Source of the DNA: a virus
Reading direction: 5' to 3' (one strand)
Length of the DNA: 64,000 nucleotides
Virus record (IMG/VR): IMGVR_UViG_3300036861_001106
Span: 1 to 64,000 of that record
Shown: positions 972-54,269 of the stretch, in pieces
Layout of the letters: every line of letters starts with the position of its first letter
How positions within the stretch are numbered: the first letter of the stretch is position 1
Translations under genes and position numbers: made by a program
The notes under the pieces: generated by a model
Databases searched by the model: none
Told to the model about the DNA's origin: nothing
Seen by the model: only the letters and a program-made list of their open reading frames with translations

Positions 972-1022
972 AGATTCAGCGATAAGATTCACATGAGAAA
1001 AAGATTCAAGATTCAAGAATCA
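972..1022. repeat. AGATTCA heptamer cluster in an AT-rich intergenic tract
   Basis: exact copies at 972, 985, 1002 and 1009, variant AGAATCA at 1016. Confidence 0.8.
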
Positions 1023-1069: not shown

Positions 1070-1489
1070 ATGATTGGACCGCTGGCTTGCTGTGCGTCTA
1101 GCTATGAGCGTTGCCGGACGTGCGGTGGGTTCATTGCCTACGAACACTGCGTTGACTGTGGGAGGGCTGCGCTGCCTGCTACCTCTGCGCCTGCTTCCTC
1201 GGCTGCTTCCTCGGCTGCTTCCTCGTCTGGCTCGCCAACTCAAGGGGGTGGCGTGGGCTCACCTGCTGTCTCGTCTGCGTGCCCGATGTGCGGGACGGCG
1301 GTGGTGGGGGCGTGCTGCCCGCGGTGTGGGCTGCCGGCTGCGGTGCCGCCTGCGCCGGCGGTGCCCACGGCGGGGGCTGCCCTGCCCGCGGCACAGGCTG
1401 CTGCCCCGGACGTCAGTGCCTGCTGTGGGGTGGCGTGGTTCCTGTGCGACGGGGTGCGGGTCTGTGAGGGGTGCAGGCTGCGGTGCTGA
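1070..1489 (+). CDS. multi-zinc-ribbon protein with Ala/Ser/Pro linkers
   Basis: AGGAGG SD; several CxxC pairs; 12-nt tandem repeat CTGCTTCCTCGG at about 1191-1225. Confidence 0.7.
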   Translation: MIGPLACCASSYERCRTCGGFIAYEHCVDCGRAALPATSAPASSAASSAASSSGSPTQGGGVGSPAVSSACPMCGTAVVGACCPRCGLPAAVPPAPAVPTAGAALPAAQAAAPDVSACCGVAWFLCDGVRVCEGCRLRC

Positions 1490-1592
1490 CAAAGAGAGCC
1501 CTGCGGCACCGGTGGTGCTGCAGGGCTGACGACAAGTGACGATCACGAAAGCACAATCTGATTCTACCGGGTTGGAGGCGCAGAGTGTCAAG
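1481..1592 (-). ncRNA. small-RNA cassette A (promoter, variable seed, terminator hairpin)
   Basis: minus-strand TTGACA(1591-1586)-19-TAGAAT(1566-1561); hairpin 1497-1527 followed by CUCUUUGU. Confidence 0.55.
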
Positions 1593-1602
1593 TGCTTTAC
1601 CT

Positions 1603-1711
1603 CGGTGCTGACAAAGAGAGAGCCCTGCGGTGCCTACAGCACCGCAGGGCTAACAAGAAGGTAAGCAGACGTGATAGTCTGATTCTACCGGGCTGGCGGT
1701 GGGTTGTCAAG
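1603..1711 (-). ncRNA. small-RNA cassette B (paralog of A)
   Basis: minus-strand TTGACA(1710-1705)-17-TAGAAT(1687-1682); perfect 13-bp hairpin 1621-1651 followed by CUCUCUUUGU. Confidence 0.65.
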
Positions 1712-1715
1712 CGCC

Positions 1716-1865
1716 CTACTTCGGTGGGTAGCAGCCCCACCCGACGGTGGGGGCCTTCCGCGCCTCCAGCTCCTGGAGGGTGAGGTGGCGGGCCTCACCC
1801 TGCGCCTCCGCCGGCGGCGTGACCTGCCGCTCCCGGCGGAGGAGCTTGCGGAGTAGTGCTCTCAA
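1716..1865 (-). CDS. 49-aa peptide, RiPP-precursor-like or pheromone-like (not in ORF track)
   Basis: SD GGAGGTG, TTG start; MRALLRKLLRRERQVTPPAEAQGEARHLTLQELEARKAPTVGWGCYPPK*. Confidence 0.65.
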   Translation of the reverse strand: MRALLRKLLRRERQVTPPAEAQGEARHLTLQELEARKAPTVGWGCYPPK

Positions 1866-1893
1866 GTGTCTCACCTCCCTTCCCCTTGACGTT

Positions 1894-3537: not shown

Positions 3538-3930
3538 TCAGTCGTCCGTTTCCTTGCATGTCACTCTGCACTGCTCACAGTACCGGCGGCCGTCCGCCTC
3601 GAAGACCGGGGCCTTGCAGCAGGCGCTGGGCCCTGGCACCCAGTCAGCGTCACGGTGCCCGCAGGCGACGCAGTGCTTGGTGTGGAGGCTGAACCACTGC
3701 TCACCGCAGCGCGGGCAGTCGGCCTCCACGTTCAGGCTGCTGGGGTCGGCGCAGGTTGCGTGCACTGCCCCGTGCACCCACTCCCACCGCCGCGCGGTGG
3801 TGGGCGCCGCGAGGGTCGCGGCCAGCAGCAGCCGGTCACACCCGGCGCAGACGGCTCGCGCCTCCCAGGTGCTCGTGGCGCGGTTGCGGCCGCAGCACTC
3901 GCAGGTGCTCGTCGTGTCGCCCTCACTCAT
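3538..3930 (-). CDS. multi-zinc-ribbon protein
   Basis: several CxxC pairs; C-terminal SACCKAP...DGRRYCEQCR module. Confidence 0.7.
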   Translation of the reverse strand: MSEGDTTSTCECCGRNRATSTWEARAVCAGCDRLLLAATLAAPTTARRWEWVHGAVHATCADPSSLNVEADCPRCGEQWFSLHTKHCVACGHRDADWVPGPSACCKAPVFEADGRRYCEQCRVTCKETDD

Positions 3931-4333
3931 CGTTGTTGCCCTCCCCGTGCGCGTTGCTCCTCGCTGCGAGGAGGTTCCCACACGCGCGGCACAGCAGGCT
4001 GCCTGCAGGGTGGCCGTGGCGGTCGGTGCGGGTGCGGTAGTAGTGTCCTCCCAGTACGTCCCCGCAGCGGGCGCACTGGAAACTCAGGCCCGGGGCTGCC
4101 GCCCTCGCTGCCGCCAGCTCGGCGAGTTGCTGGCGGATGGGGTGCGTCTCCCGCTCAAGGGCCGCGCGCACCGGGGCCTGCTGCGCGTTGGCGCAGTCCG
4201 TGCCCGCGATCTCCCTCGTCCTCGCGGCCCGCAGGCAGTACATGCAGCGGCAGGAGGTTCCCATTGTGCTACTTCTGCAGGTCTCGTGGCTCTCCCGCGG
4301 CCAGCGTTCCTCGGGCCAGTCGTGCATGCTCAT
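3923..4333 (-). CDS. Cys-rich hypothetical protein
   Basis: first gene of the leftward operon; CRCMYC, CARC and CRAC motifs. Confidence 0.65.
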   Translation of the reverse strand: MSMHDWPEERWPRESHETCRSSTMGTSCRCMYCLRAARTREIAGTDCANAQQAPVRAALERETHPIRQQLAELAAARAAAPGLSFQCARCGDVLGGHYYRTRTDRHGHPAGSLLCRACGNLLAARSNAHGEGNNDE

Positions 4334-4372: not shown

Positions 4373-4423
4373 ATTCTACCGAAACTTTTGGCAGTTGACA
4401 AGCCCCTGTCAAGTCGGTATCCT
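4373..4423. promoter_or_regulatory. bidirectional promoter with a shared -35 element
   Basis: plus TTGACA(4395-4400)-17-TATCCT(4418-4423); minus TTGTCA(4401-4396)-17-TAGAAT(4378-4373); lies at the strand switch of the genes. Confidence 0.75.
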
Positions 4424-4442: not shown

Positions 4443-4613
4443 ATGACGAACGACGAAGCAGGACGGCTGGCCGCCAAGTGGCTAGGTTCGAAGCACGAGG
4501 ACACTGGGTGGACCCCTGGCGACCTGCTCCTGCTGCAGCTCCTGGAGCAGGGTGAGCGGCTTCAGGCGCTGCTCGTGCTGATTGAGGCCCACCTTTCTGC
4601 CTGGAGGAGCTGA
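4443..4613 (+). CDS. small hypothetical protein
   Basis: AGGAGG SD; first gene of the rightward operon. Confidence 0.6.
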   Translation: MTNDEAGRLAAKWLGSKHEDTGWTPGDLLLLQLLEQGERLQALLVLIEAHLSAWRS

Positions 4614-4614
4614 G

Positions 4615-5220
4615 GTGAGCCTCCCATGGACCATCAAGGAGCTTGAGGTCCCGTACACCAGCTACGGGGAGTGGCTGGCGTTGCAGCGCCAGGAGTTTTC
4701 GGAGGAGGAGACGATGGACGAGAAGCTTTCAACGGCGGACTTCTTGACGGCACAGCACGAGGCGCTGAAGCGGGCGGTGCAGGAGGTTGAGACCAGGGTT
4801 GAGTGGGATGGGGGCGGAATTAACGCCGTCCACACCAGAATCCCCCCGCAGCCCTTCAGTGCTGCCCAGGTGGAGGTGCTGCAGGAGCTGATTGACCAGG
4901 GCGTGGCGGCGCGCCTGCACGCCGTGGCCGCGGAGCTGCAGAAGCTTGGCGTCGGCTCGCTTGCGCTAGCAATCGAGGTGGCACTTAAGCGCGCACTGGT
5001 GGCGACCCAGGCTGCTCCGCAGGCCACTGGCGGCTGCAGGCGCTGTGGGGGTCCGGTTGGCACGGGCTATGACCTCTGCGGCGGGTGTGCCGTCAACCGG
5101 AGCATCAAGGACCCAGCGCCTGCCACCCTGTCAGCCCTCAGCCGCTGCTGCAGGGCGCCCATCGACCAGTGTGACGGGCGGCCCATGTGCACTGCGTGTC
5201 GCATGACTGGGAGGGTCTGA
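4615..5220 (+). CDS. hypothetical protein with C-terminal Zn ribbons
   Basis: GGAGGA SD; ends SRCCRAP...DGRPMCTACR. Confidence 0.65.
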   Translation: MSLPWTIKELEVPYTSYGEWLALQRQEFSEEETMDEKLSTADFLTAQHEALKRAVQEVETRVEWDGGGINAVHTRIPPQPFSAAQVEVLQELIDQGVAARLHAVAAELQKLGVGSLALAIEVALKRALVATQAAPQATGGCRRCGGPVGTGYDLCGGCAVNRSIKDPAPATLSALSRCCRAPIDQCDGRPMCTACRMTGRV

Positions 5221-5822
5221 TGGTCGACGTCAAGGTCATGGTTGAGACAGACTTCACCAGTGCAAGTCCTGCAGAGCGGGCTGGCGAGGCTGCGCTGCGG
5301 CGTGAGCTTGGCCTTGCAGTGCAGGTCCACGCGGCCTACCTGCAGGCTCGGGCTGACGAGCTGGTCAAGGCTGGGGAGAGCTTGCTGGCCAATTGGCTGC
5401 AGCAGGTGGCGGCCCAGTTCAAGCAGTGCGCCCCTCTCTTTCCCAGCGAGCGCCACGCTGAAGCGGCAGCTCACGTCGCCAGGGCGCTCGTTCAGGAACT
5501 CGGCGTGGACTGCGTCTGGTGCTCAGAGTGGGGTAATCGGTGGCAACTCGCCTCCCAGCGGGAGTTCAACCGCGAGACCGGGCGGTGGCGGTGTGCCTGC
5601 CCGGCACCCGTCGAGGAGGGGATTGAGGTATTACAGCAGACCATGGAGCGAGTGGACGCGGCCATGGAGCAAGTGGACACAGCCATTGAGGCAGCACAGC
5701 AGGCTGTGGAGTGGACCGTGGAGTGGAAGGCACCGTCTTGTGCCTGCCACGGTGTGCCGGCCTTTCAGGAGGGCGACGCCCGCTACTGCAGCGTGACGCG
5801 CCTGCGGTGCAAGTTGCGGTGA
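5220..5822 (+). CDS. hypothetical protein with coiled coil and C-terminal Zn module
   Basis: TGATG coupling; ends SCACHGVP...GDARYCSVTRLRC. Confidence 0.65.
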   Translation: MVDVKVMVETDFTSASPAERAGEAALRRELGLAVQVHAAYLQARADELVKAGESLLANWLQQVAAQFKQCAPLFPSERHAEAAAHVARALVQELGVDCVWCSEWGNRWQLASQREFNRETGRWRCACPAPVEEGIEVLQQTMERVDAAMEQVDTAIEAAQQAVEWTVEWKAPSCACHGVPAFQEGDARYCSVTRLRCKLR

Positions 5823-6293: not shown

Positions 6294-6443
6294 CGCGCGT
6301 CAACCTCGCCGCGCCCACTTGCGGTTTGCGCCGCAGGTCGGTAGACTAGGGGTGCCAGACCGCGCGCCCGACGCATCATCGGGCACACCGGCACCGGGGA
6401 CCATCCCCCGGTGCCGTCTTCTTGAGAGGGGAAGGAGGATGGA

Positions 6444-6848
6444 GTGCGTGACTTCCTGAGCCCACTGGCGATGCAGCAGGTCGCTGAGGAGTGGGAGCCG
6501 GCGTTGTTGATGGCCTGTGTCCTTGGCTTCTTCCATGAGGTGGAGGCGAACCTCGTGGCGCTGCTGCCGTCGCTGCTGGCTGGTGAGGTGCATGAGCTGC
6601 ACCTCCGGGTCAACGGGGCGGAGGCCCACTGCGTTCTGATCGAGCGCCTCGGGTCCGAGGCGGCAGTCCACGCCGCCCTGGCGCGCGTCTGCAGCGCCAT
6701 CCTCCAGCAGGTGCGCCAGGCTGGGTGGCTCGTCACCGCGCCGGTGGTCACGGACGACGGGTGGGGCTTCGCCTTCACCGTGCAGGTGCACGAGCGGATC
6801 GTGCAGGGCCTGCGGGCGGAGCGCAGTGGCGGGGAGGTGACGCAGTGA
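6444..6848 (+). CDS. hypothetical protein
   Basis: AGGAGG SD; GC3-biased ORF. Confidence 0.6.
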   Translation: MRDFLSPLAMQQVAEEWEPALLMACVLGFFHEVEANLVALLPSLLAGEVHELHLRVNGAEAHCVLIERLGSEAAVHAALARVCSAILQQVRQAGWLVTAPVVTDDGWGFAFTVQVHERIVQGLRAERSGGEVTQ

Positions 6849-10567: not shown

Positions 10568-10842
10568 GCCGAACAATCTGGAAGTACCCCCTCCCGGCTA
10601 AATACTACGGGGATTTTGAGCTTGAGCTGCCGGATGGCGCGGTTTTTCTGAGCCTTCAGGTTCAGCGCGGGGTGCCCTGTCTCTGGGCCATGGTGGATCC
10701 GAGTGCGCCCAAGGTGAGGGAGACCTTCAAGTGGTTGCTCACGGGGGATGAGGTGCCAACCGGCACTGACTGGGGCTACGTGGGTCTTGTTCAGCTCCAT
10801 GACGGTGGCCTTGTCGTGCACCTGTGGAGGATGTTCCGTTGA
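10564..10842 (+). CDS. conserved phage protein (IWKYPL...LWA family)
   Basis: RTIWKYPL...LELPDGAVFLSLQVQ...CLWAMVD. Confidence 0.7.
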   Translation: MSRTIWKYPLPAKYYGDFELELPDGAVFLSLQVQRGVPCLWAMVDPSAPKVRETFKWLLTGDEVPTGTDWGYVGLVQLHDGGLVVHLWRMFR

Positions 10843-11825
10843 GCGCCTTCCTTGAGTCCCTGGTCCTGCCCGTGCTCACCGAGGCCACCGTCGCCGCCGC
10901 CATTGCCGCCGCCAGTGTGCGGGGGCGCGGGGACAATGACCTCGCGGACCAGCTTGCCACCGAGGCAATGCGGGAGGTCCTGAATGCACGCCTGCCCTGC
11001 GCCGCCGTCGTCGTCGCGGGGGAGGGGGGGCGCACCGACTCGCCGCGCCTGGAGGCGGGTGAGGAGCTTGGTCATGGTGACTTCAACGACCCCGTCCTGC
11101 AGCTCGTCGTGGACCCCCTGGAGGCGACCCGCTGCTGCGCCCGGGGGGAGCCGGGGTCCATCTCAATGCTCGCCGCCGCCTTCGAGGGGGAGGGCGCCTT
11201 CCACGTCGGCCCGGACACCTACCTGGAGAAGGTCGTGCTCGCCGCTGACCTGGCGGCGCGGCTGGATGTCCTGCGGCACCAGGTGGAGGTGCAGTTCCCG
11301 GACCAGGCCTCGCAGCACCTGCTTGACCTGCCGCTGTCCAAGGTCGTGGACTGGCTCGCCTGGGCGCGCCAGAAGGAGCGGGCGCACGTGACGACGATGC
11401 TCCTGGACCGGGAGCGCAACGTGCTGGCGATCAAGTTCCTGCAGGAGCTGAACTCCCAGGTGCGGCTCATCCGCGACGGGGACGCCGTGGCAGCCCTGCT
11501 GGCCCTGGACCGCACGAGTGGCGTGGATCTTGCACTTGGAATCGGTGGAGCACCGGAAGCCCTGATTGCCGCCGCCGTGACCCGCGTGTTCGGTGGGCAC
11601 GCCGAGTTTCGCTGGTGGGATGCGGCGAGTACCGGGCCGAAGCCAATCTACACTGCCGAGCAGCTTGCCTCGGGGCACGTCATGTTCGCGATGACCGGCG
11701 TGACCAGCAACGAGGTGCTGAGGGGGGTCAGGTATCGGCGTGGCCTCCCGGTCACGGATTCAATCTGCGGAAGTAGCCGCACTGGCGTGATTTCACGGAT
11801 TGAGCGGGAGGTGCATGTCAGGTGA
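10839..11825 (+). CDS. glpX: class II fructose-1,6-bisphosphatase
   Basis: GRGD..AD, GEG, DPLEAT, YLEK, LDR.R, DGD, GIGGAPE and TGVT motifs in the canonical order. Confidence 0.9.
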   Translation: MSAFLESLVLPVLTEATVAAAIAAASVRGRGDNDLADQLATEAMREVLNARLPCAAVVVAGEGGRTDSPRLEAGEELGHGDFNDPVLQLVVDPLEATRCCARGEPGSISMLAAAFEGEGAFHVGPDTYLEKVVLAADLAARLDVLRHQVEVQFPDQASQHLLDLPLSKVVDWLAWARQKERAHVTTMLLDRERNVLAIKFLQELNSQVRLIRDGDAVAALLALDRTSGVDLALGIGGAPEALIAAAVTRVFGGHAEFRWWDAASTGPKPIYTAEQLASGHVMFAMTGVTSNEVLRGVRYRRGLPVTDSICGSSRTGVISRIEREVHVR

Positions 11826-13745: not shown

Positions 13746-14141
13746 GTGGTCACGCTGGCGTCCGTGAGCCCAGTCCCTGCCAAGCCTGTCCTCACCCGTG
13801 CGGAGCTGCTCGTGGCAGCCCGCGCCGCCGCCGCGTGGCCGCTGGGCTGCAACGCCGCCACGCGGTGGTTCAGCAGTCCTCAGGCTGCAGCCGCCTGCAG
13901 CTACCCGCACCCGGTGCAGGTGGCGCTGGCACGCCGCTGGGGCTGCCCTGCCGTGGCGGTGACCGCCTACCGCGGTCACCTCCGCGGCGACCCAACCGTC
14001 CCATGGCCCGAGGTGTGGGCGGTGCAGGTGGTCCTCATTGCCCTGGTGCGCGTGGGCGACCTGCGCCTCAATGAGGCACTGACCCAAGTTCCAGCGCTGG
14101 TGGCGCAGGTCCTGCAGGACCTGGCTGCTGCCCAGTGCTGA
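13746..14141 (+). CDS. hypothetical protein
   Basis: GGAGGAGG SD, GTG start. Confidence 0.5.
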   Translation: MVTLASVSPVPAKPVLTRAELLVAARAAAAWPLGCNAATRWFSSPQAAAACSYPHPVQVALARRWGCPAVAVTAYRGHLRGDPTVPWPEVWAVQVVLIALVRVGDLRLNEALTQVPALVAQVLQDLAAAQC

Positions 14142-14166
14142 CGACAAGTGCGAAAGGACAAGAACC

Positions 14167-14706
14167 GTGCGAATCAAAGCTGTGCTGCTGGCCGTGTTTG
14201 GTCTCCTCTGCATGCTCACTGCGCCACGCGCTGAGGCGAACACCTACGGGACCTGGGGCCTCTATGGCGACCGCTACTGGCAGGTGATGGCGAACGTGAT
14301 AAACCCCCTCAATGGGGCCACCTACACCACCTATGGGGGCACTTACGTGTACGTGCCACACAGCGGCAACTACGAGAACCGACTGCAGAACTCGAATGCG
14401 GAGGGGATGAGTCCCCACTTCTACACCCTGGTCGGGAGCCTTCAGCGGTACGACCGCGGTTTTGCCTACTGGCGCTACTTCAACGACGAGATTCGCGGCT
14501 ACACCCAGCCGTCGCAGCCGCAGGCAGCCTGGAGTGTCTACGGCTGGCGGAACCCGCCAACAGACAACTACTGGGACTACGTCTCCGTCAGCCCGCCGAA
14601 CACCTGGAACCTCTGCGATGCCATCACACACGCGACCGACCATGCCATCGGCTACGTCTCGCGTAGCATCTCGGAGCGCCAGTATTACAAGACGATAAGG
14701 CAGTAG
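14167..14706 (+). CDS. exported Tyr/Trp-rich protein
   Basis: AAAGGA SD; signal peptide ending AEA. Confidence 0.7.
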   Translation: MRIKAVLLAVFGLLCMLTAPRAEANTYGTWGLYGDRYWQVMANVINPLNGATYTTYGGTYVYVPHSGNYENRLQNSNAEGMSPHFYTLVGSLQRYDRGFAYWRYFNDEIRGYTQPSQPQAAWSVYGWRNPPTDNYWDYVSVSPPNTWNLCDAITHATDHAIGYVSRSISERQYYKTIRQ

Positions 14707-18542: not shown

Positions 18543-18571
18543 TGAGCAGCCATCCGGCTGCTCACTTTTTT
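18543..18571 (+). terminator. intrinsic terminator
   Basis: TGAGCAGCC-ATCC-GGCTGCTCA followed by CTTTTTT. Confidence 0.8.
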
Positions 18572-18583
18572 CGGGTGGTGGGG

Positions 18584-18681
18584 TTGACACTTGCCTGCCA
18601 TCCCGGTAACCTCAGGTTGCTCACTAATCTTCACTGACGGACACCGTTGCCGCAGCCCCCTGGGGCTGCGGCGCCTTTTTT
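18584..18681 (+). ncRNA. promoter, ~65-nt RNA and terminator (sRNA or attenuator leader)
   Basis: TTGACA(18584)-17-TAACCT(18607); GCCGCAGCCCC/GGGGCTGCGGC hairpin plus T6 immediately before the next SD. Confidence 0.55.
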
Positions 18682-18692
18682 CTGGAGGACCG

Positions 18693-19010
18693 ATGGACCT
18701 GACCTGGCCAGCCTTCGCGCAGTGGCTGCGGAGCCTCCCGCCGGACAAGGCGGTGGGCCTCGCGGGCGGTTCCTACCTGCACCCCTTCGCGCTCTTCGTC
18801 TCCAGCCTCCACGGTGGGCGCGACACCTACGTGTGGTGCGCGGCGGGGAGCATCTACGTGTGGGTGCAGGGCGACGACCTGCCCTGGTATCTGGAGGAGC
18901 CCAGCGTGGTGGCGGGGCTGCCAGCCTTCAACGACCTCCTGGTGCCACCGGAGCCGCTGCGGGCCGTCACGGCTGGGGAGTGCGTGGCAGTGTTGGACCA
19001 GTTGGGATGA
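18693..19010 (+). CDS. hypothetical protein
   Basis: GGAGG SD, ATG start. Confidence 0.65.
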   Translation: MDLTWPAFAQWLRSLPPDKAVGLAGGSYLHPFALFVSSLHGGRDTYVWCAAGSIYVWVQGDDLPWYLEEPSVVAGLPAFNDLLVPPEPLRAVTAGECVAVLDQLG

Positions 19011-33151: not shown

Positions 33152-36100
33152 TTGCCCTACGCCAGGACCAGCGAGCTGCCAGAGGGTGTCAAGGGTGCCC
33201 TGCCGAAGCGGGGTCAACGCATCTTTCGCGCTGCGTTCAATGCCGCTCACCGCACCTACGGTGGCAATGAGGAGCGGGCCTTCAAAGTGGCCTGGGCGGC
33301 GGTGAAGCGCGTCTTCAAGAAGAAGGGTGGCAAGTGGGTCAAGGCCAGCCAGTCTGATCTGACCACCCAGCAGCTCCTCCTGGACACGCAGCGGCTCTAC
33401 CAGGAGCACTGGCGCCGCAACCCCGAGGCGCTGCCTGCCCAGCGCACGGTCAACGACCTGCTGGCGCAGGTGGCAGCCAACCCGACACAGGACTTGCGAC
33501 TCCTGCGGCAGCTTGAGGGGCTCGGTGTCCCGTACTTTGACTTCGAGGCGCTTGTGCAGTCATACGCGAATCCAATGCCGTGTGCGCCTCACACCGATGA
33601 CTTTCCCGGCTCCCTGGACCACCGCATCCGGCGGGTGTGCTGCGCCGTGCGGGATGAGGGCGACGAGTACCTGGGCGAGTACGGGTACGTGCTGGCAGTC
33701 TACCCCAACTTCGCCGTCTGCTGCTCCCTGGACGAGGGCGATGAGGACACTGACTACTGGAAGGTTGACTACACGTTCAACCCGACGACGTTTGAGGTGG
33801 CACTGGGCGACGCCCAGCCGGTCGAGGTCCTGACCGTCGTGGTGCCGCATGAGGGGGAGGCGATGGAGACACCAGAGCGCGAGGGCCTGAACATCGGCGG
33901 GACTCAGACCGTGGTCGACCAGGAGGCCAAGTTCAAGACCGACAACGGTCAGCAGTTCTCCCGAGGTGCCTACCTCATCATCGGCGACCCTGACCTCCCC
34001 TCGACCTGGAAGGTGCGCGTGGAGGAGACGCCGGGCAAGGTGACGGTGCCGCAGCTTGGGCGTGCCTACGCAGCCCTGACCAAGGGCTTTCGGGGCAACA
34101 AGGTTGCAGCCTCCGGCGGTGACAAGTCGGCGGCGCTGGGCAAGCTCAAGTCGCTCTACAAGTCGCACGACGCCGAGTGGCCCGGTGACAAGCAGAGCGT
34201 GGCGCCTGACCTCACGGGGGCCTTGAACCAGGACCCCCAGTGGACCACCACGCCCACCTGGCTGGCCCAGGGGCAGCCGCCGCCGGGCGGGGACGAGGAC
34301 CTCGTCCAGACCTGCGCGCTTGAGCTTGAGCAGGTGGAGGTGGACAAGCAGACGGGAGTCATGCACATTCGAGCCTGCCTCACCGTCGGGAACGTCCTGA
34401 ACGCCATGGGGGAGGTCTACCCGACGCAGGTGTGGGAGGACAACCTCCCCTTCTTGCAGACAGCCGCCGAGCAGGGGGCGCTCCTCGGCGAGTCCAACCA
34501 CCCACCGCCGGGTGAGTCATCCCTGGACCGCTCCTGCATCCTCTGGGATGAGGTGTGGCTTGAGGGTGACCGGCTGATGGGCGCTGGTCGCGTGCTGCCC
34601 ACGGTGCCCTCTGGGCAGAACCTGCAGATGCTCCTGCAGCACGATGCCAAGGTGGACGTCTCCTCCCGGGGCAAGGGCACGCGCAAGCAGGGCGACTGGG
34701 TCAACCCCACCACCGGCGAGCGGTACCAGGATGCGTTGGTGATCCAGCGTGGGTACCGCTGCCGCACATTCGACGCTGTCGGGTCCGGCGCCTCGCCGGG
34801 CGCGACCATCACCACGCACGAGATGGCGCAGCAGGCCGACCTTACTGCTGAGGAGCACGACATGAAAGAGATCGAAACCCTGTCGCAGCAGGTCCAGGCG
34901 CAGGCTGCGACCCTCGCGCAGATCACCGAGACGCTGGCGAAGCTTGCCGCACCCCCGCCCGCCCCGACACCCCCTGCGGCGGGCGCTGCCACCGCCGCGC
35001 TGGATGTCCCGGTTACCGCACCAGCCACAGCAGCACTGCAGCAGGCAGCCCCGGACTTCGTGGCTACCCTCACCGCGGTGGCTGCGCAGCAGGAGCGGAT
35101 GATGCCCCTCCTGCTGGAGGAGCGCAAGCGGCAGCTCCTGGAGCAGGCGCGCACGGAGCACAAGCTCCCGCAACAGTGGCTCAACTCCTACCGCAACATC
35201 CTCAACGAGGGGCAGTGCAAGTCCATCGCGGAGCTGGAGGCGCACTCCGAGCGCATGCTGCCGGCGGTGCTCTCGATGTACAAGGAGCGCCCGCAGTTGG
35301 CGCACGGCTTCCAGGTCCAGCAGGACCCTGGGGAGCGCCCTGGCCCGAAGACCCCCCGGCAGATGATTGACTTCCTGGTCAAGGACGTGGACGACACGGT
35401 CCTCTACGACCCACAGAGCTTCATCCGGCAGGATGATGAGACAGGTGCGCCGGTGCACGCACCCGACTCGGTGAAGACCCGGCGGCGCCAACTGCGGCAG
35501 ATCCTGCTGAACATCGCCCAGCACCAGGATGACAACTGGAATGGCCCTGCTGCGCTGACGGCGTTTGTGCGGCTCTACCAGGGCTACGACCCCATCCAGG
35601 TCAAGGATGCATGGATGGACCAGGCCTGCGCTGACTGCACCACCTCGGTGGCAGCCGGTGGCGCGCCCTCCAGCGCGCTGTTCATCTTCCCGCTGGTCCG
35701 GGCGGTCTACCCGCAGCTCATCGCGCCGGAGATCGCCTCTATCCAGCCGATGGACCGGCCTGACGGGCGCATCTTCTTCCTGAATGCGTTCCGGTGCCCA
35801 GTGCCGGGCATGGACGTGGTGGACCAGTCGGGGGCCACGATCTCCAACCGGATGTTCATGGACCGCAGCTCGTCCTTCAGCTCGTCCTTCGCGGATCGCG
35901 CGGCTGAGTGCGACGAGGCGGCGAAGATCCAGCTCCGGCTGGCCTCCGTGTCGGTGACGGCGACGACCAAGGCCCTCACCTCCATCAACACGATTGAGGA
36001 GCTGCAGGACCTGCGGGCCTACCATGGGCTGGACGTGAACACCGAGCTGATGTCAGCCCTCTCCCGGGAGATTGCCCTGGAGTGGAACCTCACCGTGCTC

Positions 36101-36646
36101 AACGAGATGGTCGCGGGCGCCACGGCCAGCGCACGCTTCTATGGCACCAACGCTCCCACTGGCTACACGCAGAAGGAGTGGGCGGAGTACCTGCCGCGCT
36201 ACATCGACGCGGTGAGCATGGACATCTTCTCCAAGCGCCACGGCAACGCGACGCACGTCATCGCCGGGCCGCAGGCCATCCTCCGGTTGGGCGCAGCCTA
36301 CCGGCAGCCGGTGCAGCCGACGGGGGTCAATCCGCAGGTCTACCCCGGCCTGGCCGTGACGCCCTGGCTGGCTGGCACCAGCGCTGACATCAAGGTCTAC
36401 CAGACGAGCTTCTGGACAGGGGTGAACCAGAACACCATCCTGGTCATCCGCCGGGGTGCCGACTGGTCGGACACGGGGTACGTGTTCGCCCCCTACATCG
36501 ACTACATCGCGCCCCTCCTGACGCTGCCGGACACCTTCACCCAGAAGCAGGGTGTGATGTCCCGTGCAGCGCACCGGGTGGTCGTGGGTGACACCATGGG
36601 CACCATCACCATCGTGCCGGGTGACACCGGCGTTGAGGTGCCGTAG
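33152..36646 (+). CDS. polyprotein: ChaB domain, T4 gp21-like prohead protease, scaffold and T4 gp23-like major capsid protein
   Basis: ChaB (PY...LP..VK..LP..GQRIF.AAFN...AWAAVK); protease LGESNHP, VSSRGKG, TFDAV; MCP PLVRAVYPQLIA..IASIQPM..PDGRIFFL, ELQDLRAYHGLD, LS.EIALE.N, FAPY. Confidence 0.88.
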   Translation: MPYARTSELPEGVKGALPKRGQRIFRAAFNAAHRTYGGNEERAFKVAWAAVKRVFKKKGGKWVKASQSDLTTQQLLLDTQRLYQEHWRRNPEALPAQRTVNDLLAQVAANPTQDLRLLRQLEGLGVPYFDFEALVQSYANPMPCAPHTDDFPGSLDHRIRRVCCAVRDEGDEYLGEYGYVLAVYPNFAVCCSLDEGDEDTDYWKVDYTFNPTTFEVALGDAQPVEVLTVVVPHEGEAMETPEREGLNIGGTQTVVDQEAKFKTDNGQQFSRGAYLIIGDPDLPSTWKVRVEETPGKVTVPQLGRAYAALTKGFRGNKVAASGGDKSAALGKLKSLYKSHDAEWPGDKQSVAPDLTGALNQDPQWTTTPTWLAQGQPPPGGDEDLVQTCALELEQVEVDKQTGVMHIRACLTVGNVLNAMGEVYPTQVWEDNLPFLQTAAEQGALLGESNHPPPGESSLDRSCILWDEVWLEGDRLMGAGRVLPTVPSGQNLQMLLQHDAKVDVSSRGKGTRKQGDWVNPTTGERYQDALVIQRGYRCRTFDAVGSGASPGATITTHEMAQQADLTAEEHDMKEIETLSQQVQAQAATLAQITETLAKLAAPPPAPTPPAAGAATAALDVPVTAPATAALQQAAPDFVATLTAVAAQQERMMPLLLEERKRQLLEQARTEHKLPQQWLNSYRNILNEGQCKSIAELEAHSERMLPAVLSMYKERPQLAHGFQVQQDPGERPGPKTPRQMIDFLVKDVDDTVLYDPQSFIRQDDETGAPVHAPDSVKTRRRQLRQILLNIAQHQDDNWNGPAALTAFVRLYQGYDPIQVKDAWMDQACADCTTSVAAGGAPSSALFIFPLVRAVYPQLIAPEIASIQPMDRPDGRIFFLNAFRCPVPGMDVVDQSGATISNRMFMDRSSSFSSSFADRAAECDEAAKIQLRLASVSVTATTKALTSINTIEELQDLRAYHGLDVNTELMSALSREIALEWNLTVLNEMVAGATASARFYGTNAPTGYTQKEWAEYLPRYIDAVSMDIFSKRHGNATHVIAGPQAILRLGAAYRQPVQPTGVNPQVYPGLAVTPWLAGTSADIKVYQTSFWTGVNQNTILVIRRGADWSDTGYVFAPYIDYIAPLLTLPDTFTQKQGVMSRAAHRVVVGDTMGTITIVPGDTGVEVP

Positions 36647-53208: not shown

Positions 53209-53237
53209 AGTCTACAGATTTTGTCTCCAAATGTCAA
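53209..53237 (-). promoter_or_regulatory. promoter for a leaderless LAGLIDADG mRNA
   Basis: TTGACA(53237-53232)-17-TAGACT(53214-53209), 5 nt before ATG at 53203. Confidence 0.7.
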
Positions 53238-53295: not shown

Positions 53296-54269
53296 ATGGC
53301 CGCTACCTTTCTCGTGGAACCAGCGTAACGGAGCGAGCGGCACGGCGACAGACCTCGGATCAAGCGGAAATTTGGCTTCAAGAAGTTGGCCCCTCGCGTA
53401 GGAATGCGTGAGTGAAAACGGCGTGAATTGCGGGAAGCCTACAGCGAAGGCCATGGTAATCCGCAGCCAAGCTCGACAGGGCACTGGTTGTCGAGAAGGT
53501 TCAGAGACTAGAGGGTGAGTCCCAACAATAAGCCCTCCACGAGCGCGCCGCACCCAGATCGGGTGATGAGATAGTCCAAGCATCGGGGAAACCCGGTGAA
53601 CTAGAACTTCAAGACCACGGACACGACGGGGATTGGAGATTACGCCGCGAATCCGGTCTCAGCCGGCTCGAACTCAATGGAAGTCGTACTGCGGATGCAC
53701 TTCACAGGGTCTGCGGCCCCTCCAGCCTGAAAGGGCTGGTCGTGATGGCGTGAATTCGGGGAAGCCTACAGCGAAAGCCATGGTAATCCCGACCCAAGCT
53801 CTCCAGGAATGGTGAGAAGGGCTAGAGACCAGAGCAAGTAGACGAGACCCGTCGAACGCTCCACGAGCGCGCCACACCCCTCGGGGTGATGAGATGGTCC
53901 GACACTCCGTGGAAACGCGGAGAGCCTTGGATAAAGAGCCAAGGTGTAACTGGTGCCTTCAACCGCATCGCCGACTTCCGATTCTGGCAATCGACGGCGT
54001 TCTCGCCGTCCACCGGCTTGCAGGTCTTCTGGTCCGGCACGCAGGTCATCTACCTGCAGCCGACCACCGGCACGTCGTCCATCGCCACGTCGTCCATCCC
54101 GACGACCGACCCTGGCACGGCGAACGTCAGCGTGGGTGGCTCCCTGACCGGATGCCTGACGACATCTGGTTTTACGGACCACATCTACCTTCAGCTCAGG
54201 ACTGCGTCCAACGCTGCGGCAGGTGACACATCGCTCGGAACTTTCACGGGCAGCTACACTGAGAACTAA
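53296..54269 (+). CDS. putative virion protein in three exons (53296-53377, 53605-53710, 53956-54269); needs a +1 shift at ACC TTT C
   Basis: AGGAGG SD; joined product ~166 aa: MAATFSWNQRNGASGTATDLGSSGNLA/NFKTTD...RMHFTG/SFNRIADFRFW...YTEN. Confidence 0.75.
53378..53604 (+). ncRNA. group I intron 1 (227 nt, ORF-less)
   Basis: P AATTGCGGGAA, Q AATCCGCAGC, R TCAGAGACTA, S GAGATAGTC; P1 GGCU/GGCC with U-G; P10 GAAGUU/AACUUC; terminal G. Confidence 0.92.
53711..53955 (+). ncRNA. group I intron 2 (~245 nt, ORF-less)
   Basis: P AATTCGGGGAA, Q AATCCCGACC, R CTAGAGACCA, S GAGATGGTC; P1 GGGU/GCCC; 3' site G53955 (alternative G53952). Confidence 0.88.

Follow-up and report, generated by a model that had tools for sequence, protein, structure and literature searches.

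What does a phage gain from a promoter that runs within a few turns of helix into its own terminator, with no open reading frame (ORF) between them, and why would it carry two such units side by side? The question is raised by a locus close to the left end of an uncultured phage, the 109,530-bp IMG/VR record IMGVR_UViG_3300036861_001106, whose first 64 kb form the window analyzed here. Two units, B (1710–1603) and A (1591–1481), lie in tandem on the minus strand with a period of 121–124 nt, and each is built to start and stop transcription within ~65 nt. Judged from these signals, two ~65-nt RNAs are probably made early in infection. The reading that we place first, held tentatively and at a little less than even confidence, is that they are sibling early non-coding RNAs that serve as base-pairing regulators.

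Architecture of the tandem units

A first-pass annotation had placed two ~120-nt minus-strand units at this locus, and all the elements that it described are present. Each unit is arranged in the order TTGACA, a spacer of 17 nt (B) or 19 nt (A), TAGAAT-CAGA, a leader of 24–27 nt, a 31-nt GC hairpin and a tail. The promoter of unit B (1682–1710, minus strand) has its -35 element TTGACA at 1710–1705, a 17-nt spacer and the -10 element TAGAAT at 1687–1682, with CCGG just before the -10, and in a promoter scan it matches the consensus at 11 of 12 positions. That of unit A (1561–1591, minus strand) has the same hexamers at 1591–1586 and 1566–1561, and again CCGG just before the -10; its 19-nt spacer is suboptimal, as the earlier annotation had cautioned and as measurement from 1586 to 1566 bears out. 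An exact match to TTGACA-N16-19-TAGAAT is seen three times in the 64 kb of the window, compared with 0.00 in shuffled sequences.

In unit B the leader occupies 1652–1675 (minus strand), ~24 nt counted from the predicted start at ~1675. It leads into a hairpin at 1621–1651 (minus strand) with a perfect stem of 13–14 bp, of which the outer part is formed by AGCCCUGC and GCAGGGCU. The tail (1603–1620, minus strand; in full CUCUCUUUGUCAGCACCG) comprises the U-rich tract CUCUCUUUGU followed by CAGCACCG. There are 29 nt between this hairpin and the -35 element of promoter A. The leader of unit A is ~27 nt long (1528–1554, minus strand), with the predicted start at ~1554, the G of a GUG. In its hairpin (1497–1527, minus strand) the outer 8 bp are as in hairpin B and the inner stem is altered, including one A•C mismatch; the same position is a G•U pair on the plus strand. 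Tail A (1481–1496, minus strand; in full CUCUUUGUCAGCACCG) comprises CUCUUUGU and CAGCACCG, so that the 18-nt tail of B is the same as that of A except for an indel of CU. The 24-nt hairpin-tail motif gives no chance matches.

In both units promoter, hairpin and U-rich tract are co-oriented on the minus strand, and the plus-strand flanks of the hairpins lack a U tract. This supports the earlier description of self-contained promoter-to-terminator units on that strand.

The predicted transcripts

Where would the RNAs begin? Promoters of the CGGTAGAAT class are found elsewhere in the phage, where the -10 element ends 5–6 nt before the ATG of two leaderless genes; they are also found before leadered genes. 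Since the class drives genes elsewhere in the phage it is evidently used, and its start site can be placed. The predicted early promoter consensus is (C/G)GGTAGAAT, with the start 6–7 nt downstream. Applied to units A and B, a start 6–7 nt after the -10 element leads to predicted RNAs of ~64–65 nt.

RNA B has a predicted folding energy of -33.4 kcal/mol (z -6.2) and RNA A one of -28.4 kcal/mol (z -3.1). Both folds are far more stable than those of shuffled sequences. The hairpins alone give -27.2 and -22.7 kcal/mol; these are GC stems of 13–14 bp, after which comes CUCUCUUUGU or CUCUUUGU. In the predicted folds the leaders stay unpaired, with a weak 4-bp internal hairpin in leader A, and they have a GC content of 42% (B) to 52%, compared with 65% for the genome. 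They had been described as pyrimidine-rich. This is clear for leader B (75%, p 0.02) and not for leader A (67%, p 0.08). Leader B contains ACCUUCUU, which resembles an anti-Shine-Dalgarno sequence.

In neither unit is there an ORF between promoter and hairpin, in agreement with the first-pass annotation. RNA A would open with GUG-CUU-UCG-UGA, three codons, at the predicted start (1543–1554, minus strand). This would constitute a mini-ORF at the 5′ end of RNA A if the host translates leaderless RNAs; it has no counterpart in RNA B. A protein-coding cassette was considered and rejected, as the sequence from 1261 to 1650 is without codon periodicity and without an ORF. An origin of replication primed by transcription was likewise rejected, because no AT-rich unwinding element follows the promoters and the AT-rich TGAATCT cluster at 972–1015 is 500 nt away.

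Comparison of the two copies

Alignment of the two units divides them sharply. Identity is 100% over some 53 nt, and over another ~54 nt it is close to random. The identical blocks are CTTGACA, CCGGTAGAATCAGA, both 8-nt arms of the outer stem and the tail, whereas between A and B only ~40% identity is left in the inner stem and loop, in the leader and in the spacer of the promoter. We read the units as diverged tandem duplicates, in which only the parts that start and stop transcription have been kept. An assembly artefact was considered and rejected because the copies differ at about half of their positions.

The inner stem had been said to covary between the copies. Two double compensatory changes are indeed present, together with one one-sided change and one pair that is broken in A. 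This degree of pairing is equalled in 131 of 500 shuffles, and with two sequences it has no statistical weight.

In both copies the conservation of the tail runs 8 nt past the U tract. In copy A the additional nucleotides are accounted for by the coding end of a convergent gene (see below); in copy B they are not. We also considered whether UGCU in each leader might pair with AGCA in the tail as a closing helix, and rejected it: such a helix would be only 4–6 bp long, and the transcript would have to pass the U tract.

A candidate target for RNA A

Leader A, over the 14 nt from 1538 to 1525, is perfectly complementary to the plus strand at 14137–14150. With an adjacent 6-nt CGAAAG the candidate site extends over 14137–14156 (plus strand), and so runs into the Shine-Dalgarno (SD) sequence AAAGGA of a signal-peptide gene that begins with GTG at 14167. 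Shuffled leaders have a match of this length or longer somewhere in the genome in 2% of cases, and random genomic 37-mers in 12%; for start regions only, generously chosen, the corresponding figures are 0.4 and 2.2%. When best cofold energies were compared with those of shuffled leaders, leader A was reached or beaten by 1 of 38 and leader B by none of 38, which places both at the edge of the distribution. These statistics of exact matches and cofolding replaced plain RNAduplex energies, which lay at -35 to -43 kcal/mol for a large number of sites, the genome being GC-rich, and were of no use in telling them apart. The evidence for leader A at gene 14167 is suggestive, not decisive.

Further units and searches for relatives

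The genome was scanned for compact hairpins followed by a U-rich tract, giving ~35 candidates, to be set beside 52 loose promoter-like sites. Each of the four strongest compact hairpins (B, A and those of two further units, C and D) has a promoter-like site 59–70 nt upstream, where ~0.1 would be expected by chance. Unit C (18584–18683, plus strand) comprises TTGACA-N17-TAACCT (18584–18612), a 29-nt leader, an 11-bp hairpin at 18648–18673 and U6. It is followed directly by GGAGGA, with ATG at 18693, and is preceded by a separate terminator (18543–18564, then CUUUUUUCGG). From its layout it could be either a third candidate for a ~65-nt RNA or an attenuator ahead of the gene. Unit D (6319–6426, plus strand) comprises TTGCGG-N17-TAGACT, a leader of ~40 nt with a small hairpin, an 11-bp hairpin at 6389–6416 and then UCUUCUUGAG, after which come an SD sequence, a mini-ORF of six codons (ATG at 6439) and a GTG start at 6444. 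The hairpins of C and D are unrelated to those of A and B, and in both cases an SD sequence and gene follow within 10–25 nt. No motif common to the four leaders was found.

Neither BLAST nor a covariance model built from A and B revealed a further copy of the cassette in the 109.5-kb genome. The best non-self match of the model is unit C, which at 12.5 bits and E 0.54 is insignificant. At the far end of the genome, at 109219–109250 (minus strand), CTAGAATCGA is followed by a GCCCTG...CAGGGC hairpin, an arrangement that recalls the -10 element and outer stem of the cassettes; there is no -35 element at a usable spacing.

Beyond this genome, the exact hairpin pattern gave no match in IMG/VR, and the 15-nt tail gave more than 100 chance matches there, of the seed only. 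In metagenome contigs the hairpin pattern gave 45 matches, all of them unrelated terminators lacking the promoter or tail. No Rfam family matches the cassettes at its gathering score; F6, Spot 42 and others appear as chance matches below threshold. The stem of hairpin B resembles that of the F6 small RNA (sRNA) of Mycobacterium tuberculosis (RF01791; stem AGCCCnGnGnUGC). At 27.3 bits the match is below the gathering score of 46, its E value of 0.1 over 6 kb corresponds to ~3 genome-wide (estimated by scaling, not searched), and the hairpin alone is matched, with a 19-nt loop in the F6 model compared with 3 nt here. We read it as a chance similarity of GC-rich stems.

Neighboring genes and transcription

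Upstream of unit B lies a leftward early operon of about nine small genes, with its promoter at 4401–4373 and its final TAG at 1718–1716. The last gene encodes 52 amino acids (1716–1874, minus strand), and its stop codon lies 5 nt upstream of the -35 element of unit B. In a genome hairpin scan no terminator-like structure was found on the minus strand ahead of hairpin B, which is the only one downstream of the operon (4333–1716). Hairpins B and A may therefore also end the leftward operon. As the operon has no terminator of its own its transcripts would run into unit B, and RNA B would then also be the 3′ end of the operon. The operon promoter is one of a back-to-back divergent pair (4373–4423) that share TTGACAA (4395–4401). 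Transcription of the early gene blocks, leftward and rightward, seems to begin at these two promoters.

On the other side of the units a convergent gene, zr1 (1070–1489, plus strand), encodes a Cys-rich protein of 139 amino acids with three CxxC...CxxC zinc ribbons, preceded by a strong SD sequence. It lacks the usual signal of GC content at third codon positions (GC3). Despite this weakness we take it to be a real plus-strand gene, on the basis of its SD sequence, its ribbons and a paralog, the early protein encoded at 3541–3981 (minus strand), found by BLASTP with E 4e-5 over 74 amino acids; a second paralog match is weaker. The protein belongs to a group of paralogs within the phage that share a C-terminal CC...DG.R.C..CR module (3541–3981, minus strand; 4582–5220, plus strand; 5220–5822, plus strand). 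Used as a query against a large protein collection, it found no match, not even itself, and it appears not to have been called as a protein there. A minus-strand ORF at 1394–1179 was rejected; its GC3 signal is the antisense image of zr1, an Ala/Pro/Ser-rich gene supported by its paralog.

The stop codon of zr1 (1487–1489) lies within the conserved tail of unit A, where the plus strand is read as CGG TGC TGA, and hairpin A begins 8 nt past the stop. It is only as a plus-strand RNA that hairpin A is fully paired, G•U replacing A•C. The arrangement of genes and signals makes the cassettes a predicted meeting point of leftward and rightward transcription. The next co-oriented gene (876–667, minus strand) is 610 nt away, beyond the antisense gene, and the genome scan found no further terminator-like hairpin on the minus strand between 1480 and the gene at 876. 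In the AT-rich gap between 876–667 (minus strand) and zr1, TGAATCT is present four times within 44 nt (972–1015, minus strand), out of 15 copies in the genome. This cluster may be an operator or a set of iterons, and the AT-rich patch would be better read as a divergent promoter region.

RNA products or punctuation

How might the two units function? If they are genes for small regulatory RNAs, a host polymerase of the sigma-70 type would initiate 6–7 nt after each TAGAAT, transcribe the GC-poor, pyrimidine-rich and unstructured leader of 24–27 nt, and stop at the 13–14-bp GC hairpin and CUCU(CU)UUGU to release a non-coding RNA of ~64–65 nt. The RNAs themselves would be the product, their free 5′ leaders pairing with purine-rich regions where ribosomes bind; in the case of RNA A this would be just upstream of the SD sequence of gene 14167. 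Both would in addition be fully antisense to any read-through of zr1, and the hairpins would end the leftward early operon and shield zr1 from antisense transcription. The sequence itself shows the promoters, the hairpins, their orientation, the lack of ORFs and the pattern of conservation; from these we infer the accumulation of discrete RNAs, efficient termination and a seed function of the leaders. We place this explanation first because it is difficult to account in another way for two preserved copies of a promoter that runs straight into its own terminator, and because one leader has a plausible target. Moreover, a short RNA or initiation at B would seem to be wanted, since promoter B sits between the operon stop and the only terminator of the operon. 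There is nevertheless a good deal on the other side. Divergence of the leaders is as great as that of the promoter spacers, as would be expected of neutral sequence, so that neutral drift explains a ‘variable seed’ as well as the exchange of seeds does. The first-pass annotation had spoken of a family in which only the seed changes; neither term is supported, as there are just two homologous copies, the covariance model has no further member in 109.5 kb, and the leader is no more diverged than a functionless promoter spacer. An RNA of 65 nt does not account for the 8 nt conserved past the U tract. The U tracts are interrupted by C and the spacer at A is 19 nt, so that termination and the initiation of RNA A may be weak. 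As for targets, the site at 14167 is only 11th of 124 start regions by cofold energy, and high scores against start regions rich in purines come easily to any CU-rich leader; for leader B nothing notable was matched in the phage, where its best exact hit is a 10-mer within a coding sequence. The layout is shared by units C and D, but these directly precede an SD sequence and gene, which looks like attenuation rather than stand-alone RNA genes. Finally, no relative of the phage or cassette was found in viral, metagenome, phage or protein collections, and selection on the leaders is thus not evidenced.

Many of the same observations are accommodated by an explanation in which the units act in cis as punctuation, either as modules of terminator and promoter or as promoter-proximal attenuators, with short RNAs as by-products, as is the 6S transcript of λ pR′-tR′. 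We rank it only a little below the first explanation, as quite possible if on balance doubtful; the convergent gene, the lack of another operon terminator and the similar units in front of genes bring the two almost level. The hairpins would stop the leftward operon at its junction with zr1 and the promoters would restart leftward transcription; were termination relaxed or suppressed, read-through would be antisense to zr1, silencing it, and would reach gene 876–667. In its favor, the operon upstream is otherwise without a terminator, hairpin A lies 8 nt from the end of a real convergent gene and pairs perfectly on the plus strand only, and nothing resembling a minus-strand terminator intervenes between 1480 and the gene at 876. 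Units C and D are built alike (promoter, a leader of ~30–45 nt, hairpin, then SD sequence and gene within 10–25 nt), conservation between A and B is confined to promoter and terminator elements with neutral-looking leaders, and composite terminator-promoter motifs flanking small early genes have been described in T4-type phages (PMC2839356, PMC4122927), whose portal and capsid protein have T4-like counterparts here. Yet to place a promoter right before a terminator, with nothing between them, is a waste of initiation unless something depends on the RNA or on regulated read-through. No antiterminator protein was found, the neighboring proteins giving no family match, the four leaders have no conserved motif, and the co-oriented gene that read-through would serve is 610 nt off across an antisense gene. 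Furthermore, the known composite modules are multi-copy and flank ORFs, whereas here two copies flank none. A relic, left when a promoter-terminator junction was duplicated and small genes were lost, is a distinctly improbable source of the same layout. It would fit a tandem duplicate with no ORF between promoter and hairpin and no relatives by which conservation could be evidenced, and recombination between terminator-promoter modules of T4-type phages does delete the intervening DNA (PMC4122927). However, the variable parts are saturated with changes while ~53 nt of functional motifs show 100% identity and compensatory changes have preserved the stem, which argues for continued selection on both copies.

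The remaining explanations give the conserved hairpin and tail a role beyond termination. In a bolder form of the small RNA hypothesis, which we think unlikely, promoter, hairpin and 18-nt tail would be a fixed chassis, the tail being a handle for a protein or for 3′-end formation, and the 25-nt seeds would be exchangeable. The phage would then have a small programmable set of early RNAs, one directed to its own gene 14167 and the other or others to host messages, with unit C as a possible distant member. Very unlikely, in our judgement, is the loading of an antitermination complex of the rrn or nut kind, in which the hairpin would be boxB, CUCUUUGUCA in the tail a boxA-like site for NusB/NusE, and polymerase from the two tandem promoters would become resistant to termination for long leftward transcription. 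The 8 nt kept past the U tract in both copies are not needed by a terminator, CUCUUU..CA resembles the E. coli rrn boxA (UGCUCUUUA, then ACAA), the order of hairpin and then boxA is that of rrn sites (PMC2724277), and there are two promoters ~120 nt apart. But the match is short and indistinguishable from a terminator U tract, a GC stem of 13–14 bp with a U-rich tract should terminate, the tail of copy A is explained by the coding end of zr1, units C and D lack the motif, and the boxA used for comparison is that of E. coli rrn, not that of the host. Least credible of all is a set of nuclease guide RNAs or an array like those of clustered regularly interspaced short palindromic repeats (CRISPR), with a conserved handle and a variable spacer. 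Viewed on the plus strand the units do present a conserved hairpin followed by 25–30 variable nt, and the phage has a CRISPR-like array of 61-nt period at ~97.1–97.4 kb. However, the minus-strand -35 element, extended -10 element and terminator explain the conserved blocks base for base, the unit is 122 nt long with a full promoter and there are two only, no effector lies next to them, and the repeats at 97 kb show no similarity to them in sequence. The only nuclease nearby is an HNH homing-type enzyme, which uses no guide. The first-pass annotation was thus right that this is not a CRISPR array; its suggestion of a guide falls, as no nuclease is associated with the locus.

Relation to known systems

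Tandem sibling sRNA genes, each with its own promoter and terminator, are well known, including LhrC1-5 of Listeria, PrrF1/2 of Pseudomonas and OmrA/B of E. coli. Like these, units A and B are ORF-less, back to back, ~60–110 nt long and provided with a promoter and an intrinsic terminator. In the known families the seed is the conserved part, whereas here the leader is the least conserved and it is promoter and terminator that are shared. Phage λ makes short, promoter-proximally terminated transcripts in its 6S RNA (pR′-tR′) and oop RNA. The likeness lies in a strong constitutive promoter, an intrinsic terminator within 100–200 nt and a small early RNA (here a predicted one), to which oop adds an antisense relation to the end of a convergent gene. 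The differences are that no Q- or N-like antiterminator and no qut or nut site were identified here, and that the present units are tandemly duplicated at a convergent junction rather than placed ahead of a late operon. The small RNAs of lytic phages are poorly known, especially for those of high-GC hosts.

The closest parallel for punctuation is provided by the promoter-early stem-loops (PeSLs) of T4-type phages, cassettes composed of a terminator and a promoter (Arbiol et al. 2010, PMC2839356; Comeau et al. 2014, PMC4122927). They are present in many copies that flank ORFs, and a role in modular gene shuffling has been proposed for them, seen as indels between close relatives (PMC2839356, PMC4122927). 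As in the PeSLs, a stem-loop terminator is coupled here to an early promoter of the sigma-70 type, repeated copies share promoter and stem sequence, and the surroundings are small early genes without known function, in a phage whose head genes are T4-like. Here, though, the two copies enclose only a non-coding leader of 24–27 nt, the host is of high GC content and probably not Gram-negative, and in place of many dispersed copies flanking ORFs there are two homologous copies in 109.5 kb.

Tandem sRNA genes with their own signals, phage sRNAs and the terminator-promoter cassettes of T4-type phages are thus already known. If the RNAs are real, the locus would be a compact case of two siblings with identical expression signals and different pairing regions, with one candidate target in the phage itself. 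If the units are punctuation, the PeSL idea would reach beyond the T4-type coliphages and vibriophages to a high-GC phage that is very distant from them and has T4-like head genes. In either case annotation is improved, as the locus marks where the leftward early operon ends, reveals a convergent gene that had not been called and yields an early promoter consensus.

The phage and its host

The ends of the record share an overlap of 29 bp, which indicates a circular or permuted assembly. The genome, of 65% GC content, encodes a T4-like portal and, in a single ORF of 1164 amino acids (33152–36646, plus strand), a fusion of ChaB, prohead protease (S77) and gp23-type major capsid domains. No cultured-phage relative was found by megablast or sensitive blastn. 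The tblastn matches of the portal, to cyanophage and Flavobacterium phages, have only ~23% identity, and a portal search in IMG/VR gave no match. Of the proteins that neighbor the cassettes, the upstream one returned only itself, and family searches gave no matches.

The leaderless genes and the GGTAGAAT form of the -10 element suggest a high-GC Gram-positive host. Leaderless promoters at 53209–53237 (minus strand) and at genome position 73338–73366 (minus strand) hint at one of actinobacterial type. Two routes to the host were followed by sequence search. The phage carries glpX, for a class II fructose-1,6-bisphosphatase (10824–11825, plus strand; Pfam E 2e-64); a search with its protein gave no confirmed relative in genome contigs, and a word-based search found no close cellular relative. 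The 17-nt core of the CRISPR-like repeat gave single chance matches only, in bacterial genomes of many phyla. The array from which this core was taken lies outside the window at genome position 97115–97375, and has repeats of ~29 nt (GTCTGCCCCACGCGCGC...) at its 61-nt period. Within the window, the sole Rfam match at gathering level is a group I intron at 53369–53598 (plus strand; RF00028, 79.4 bits).

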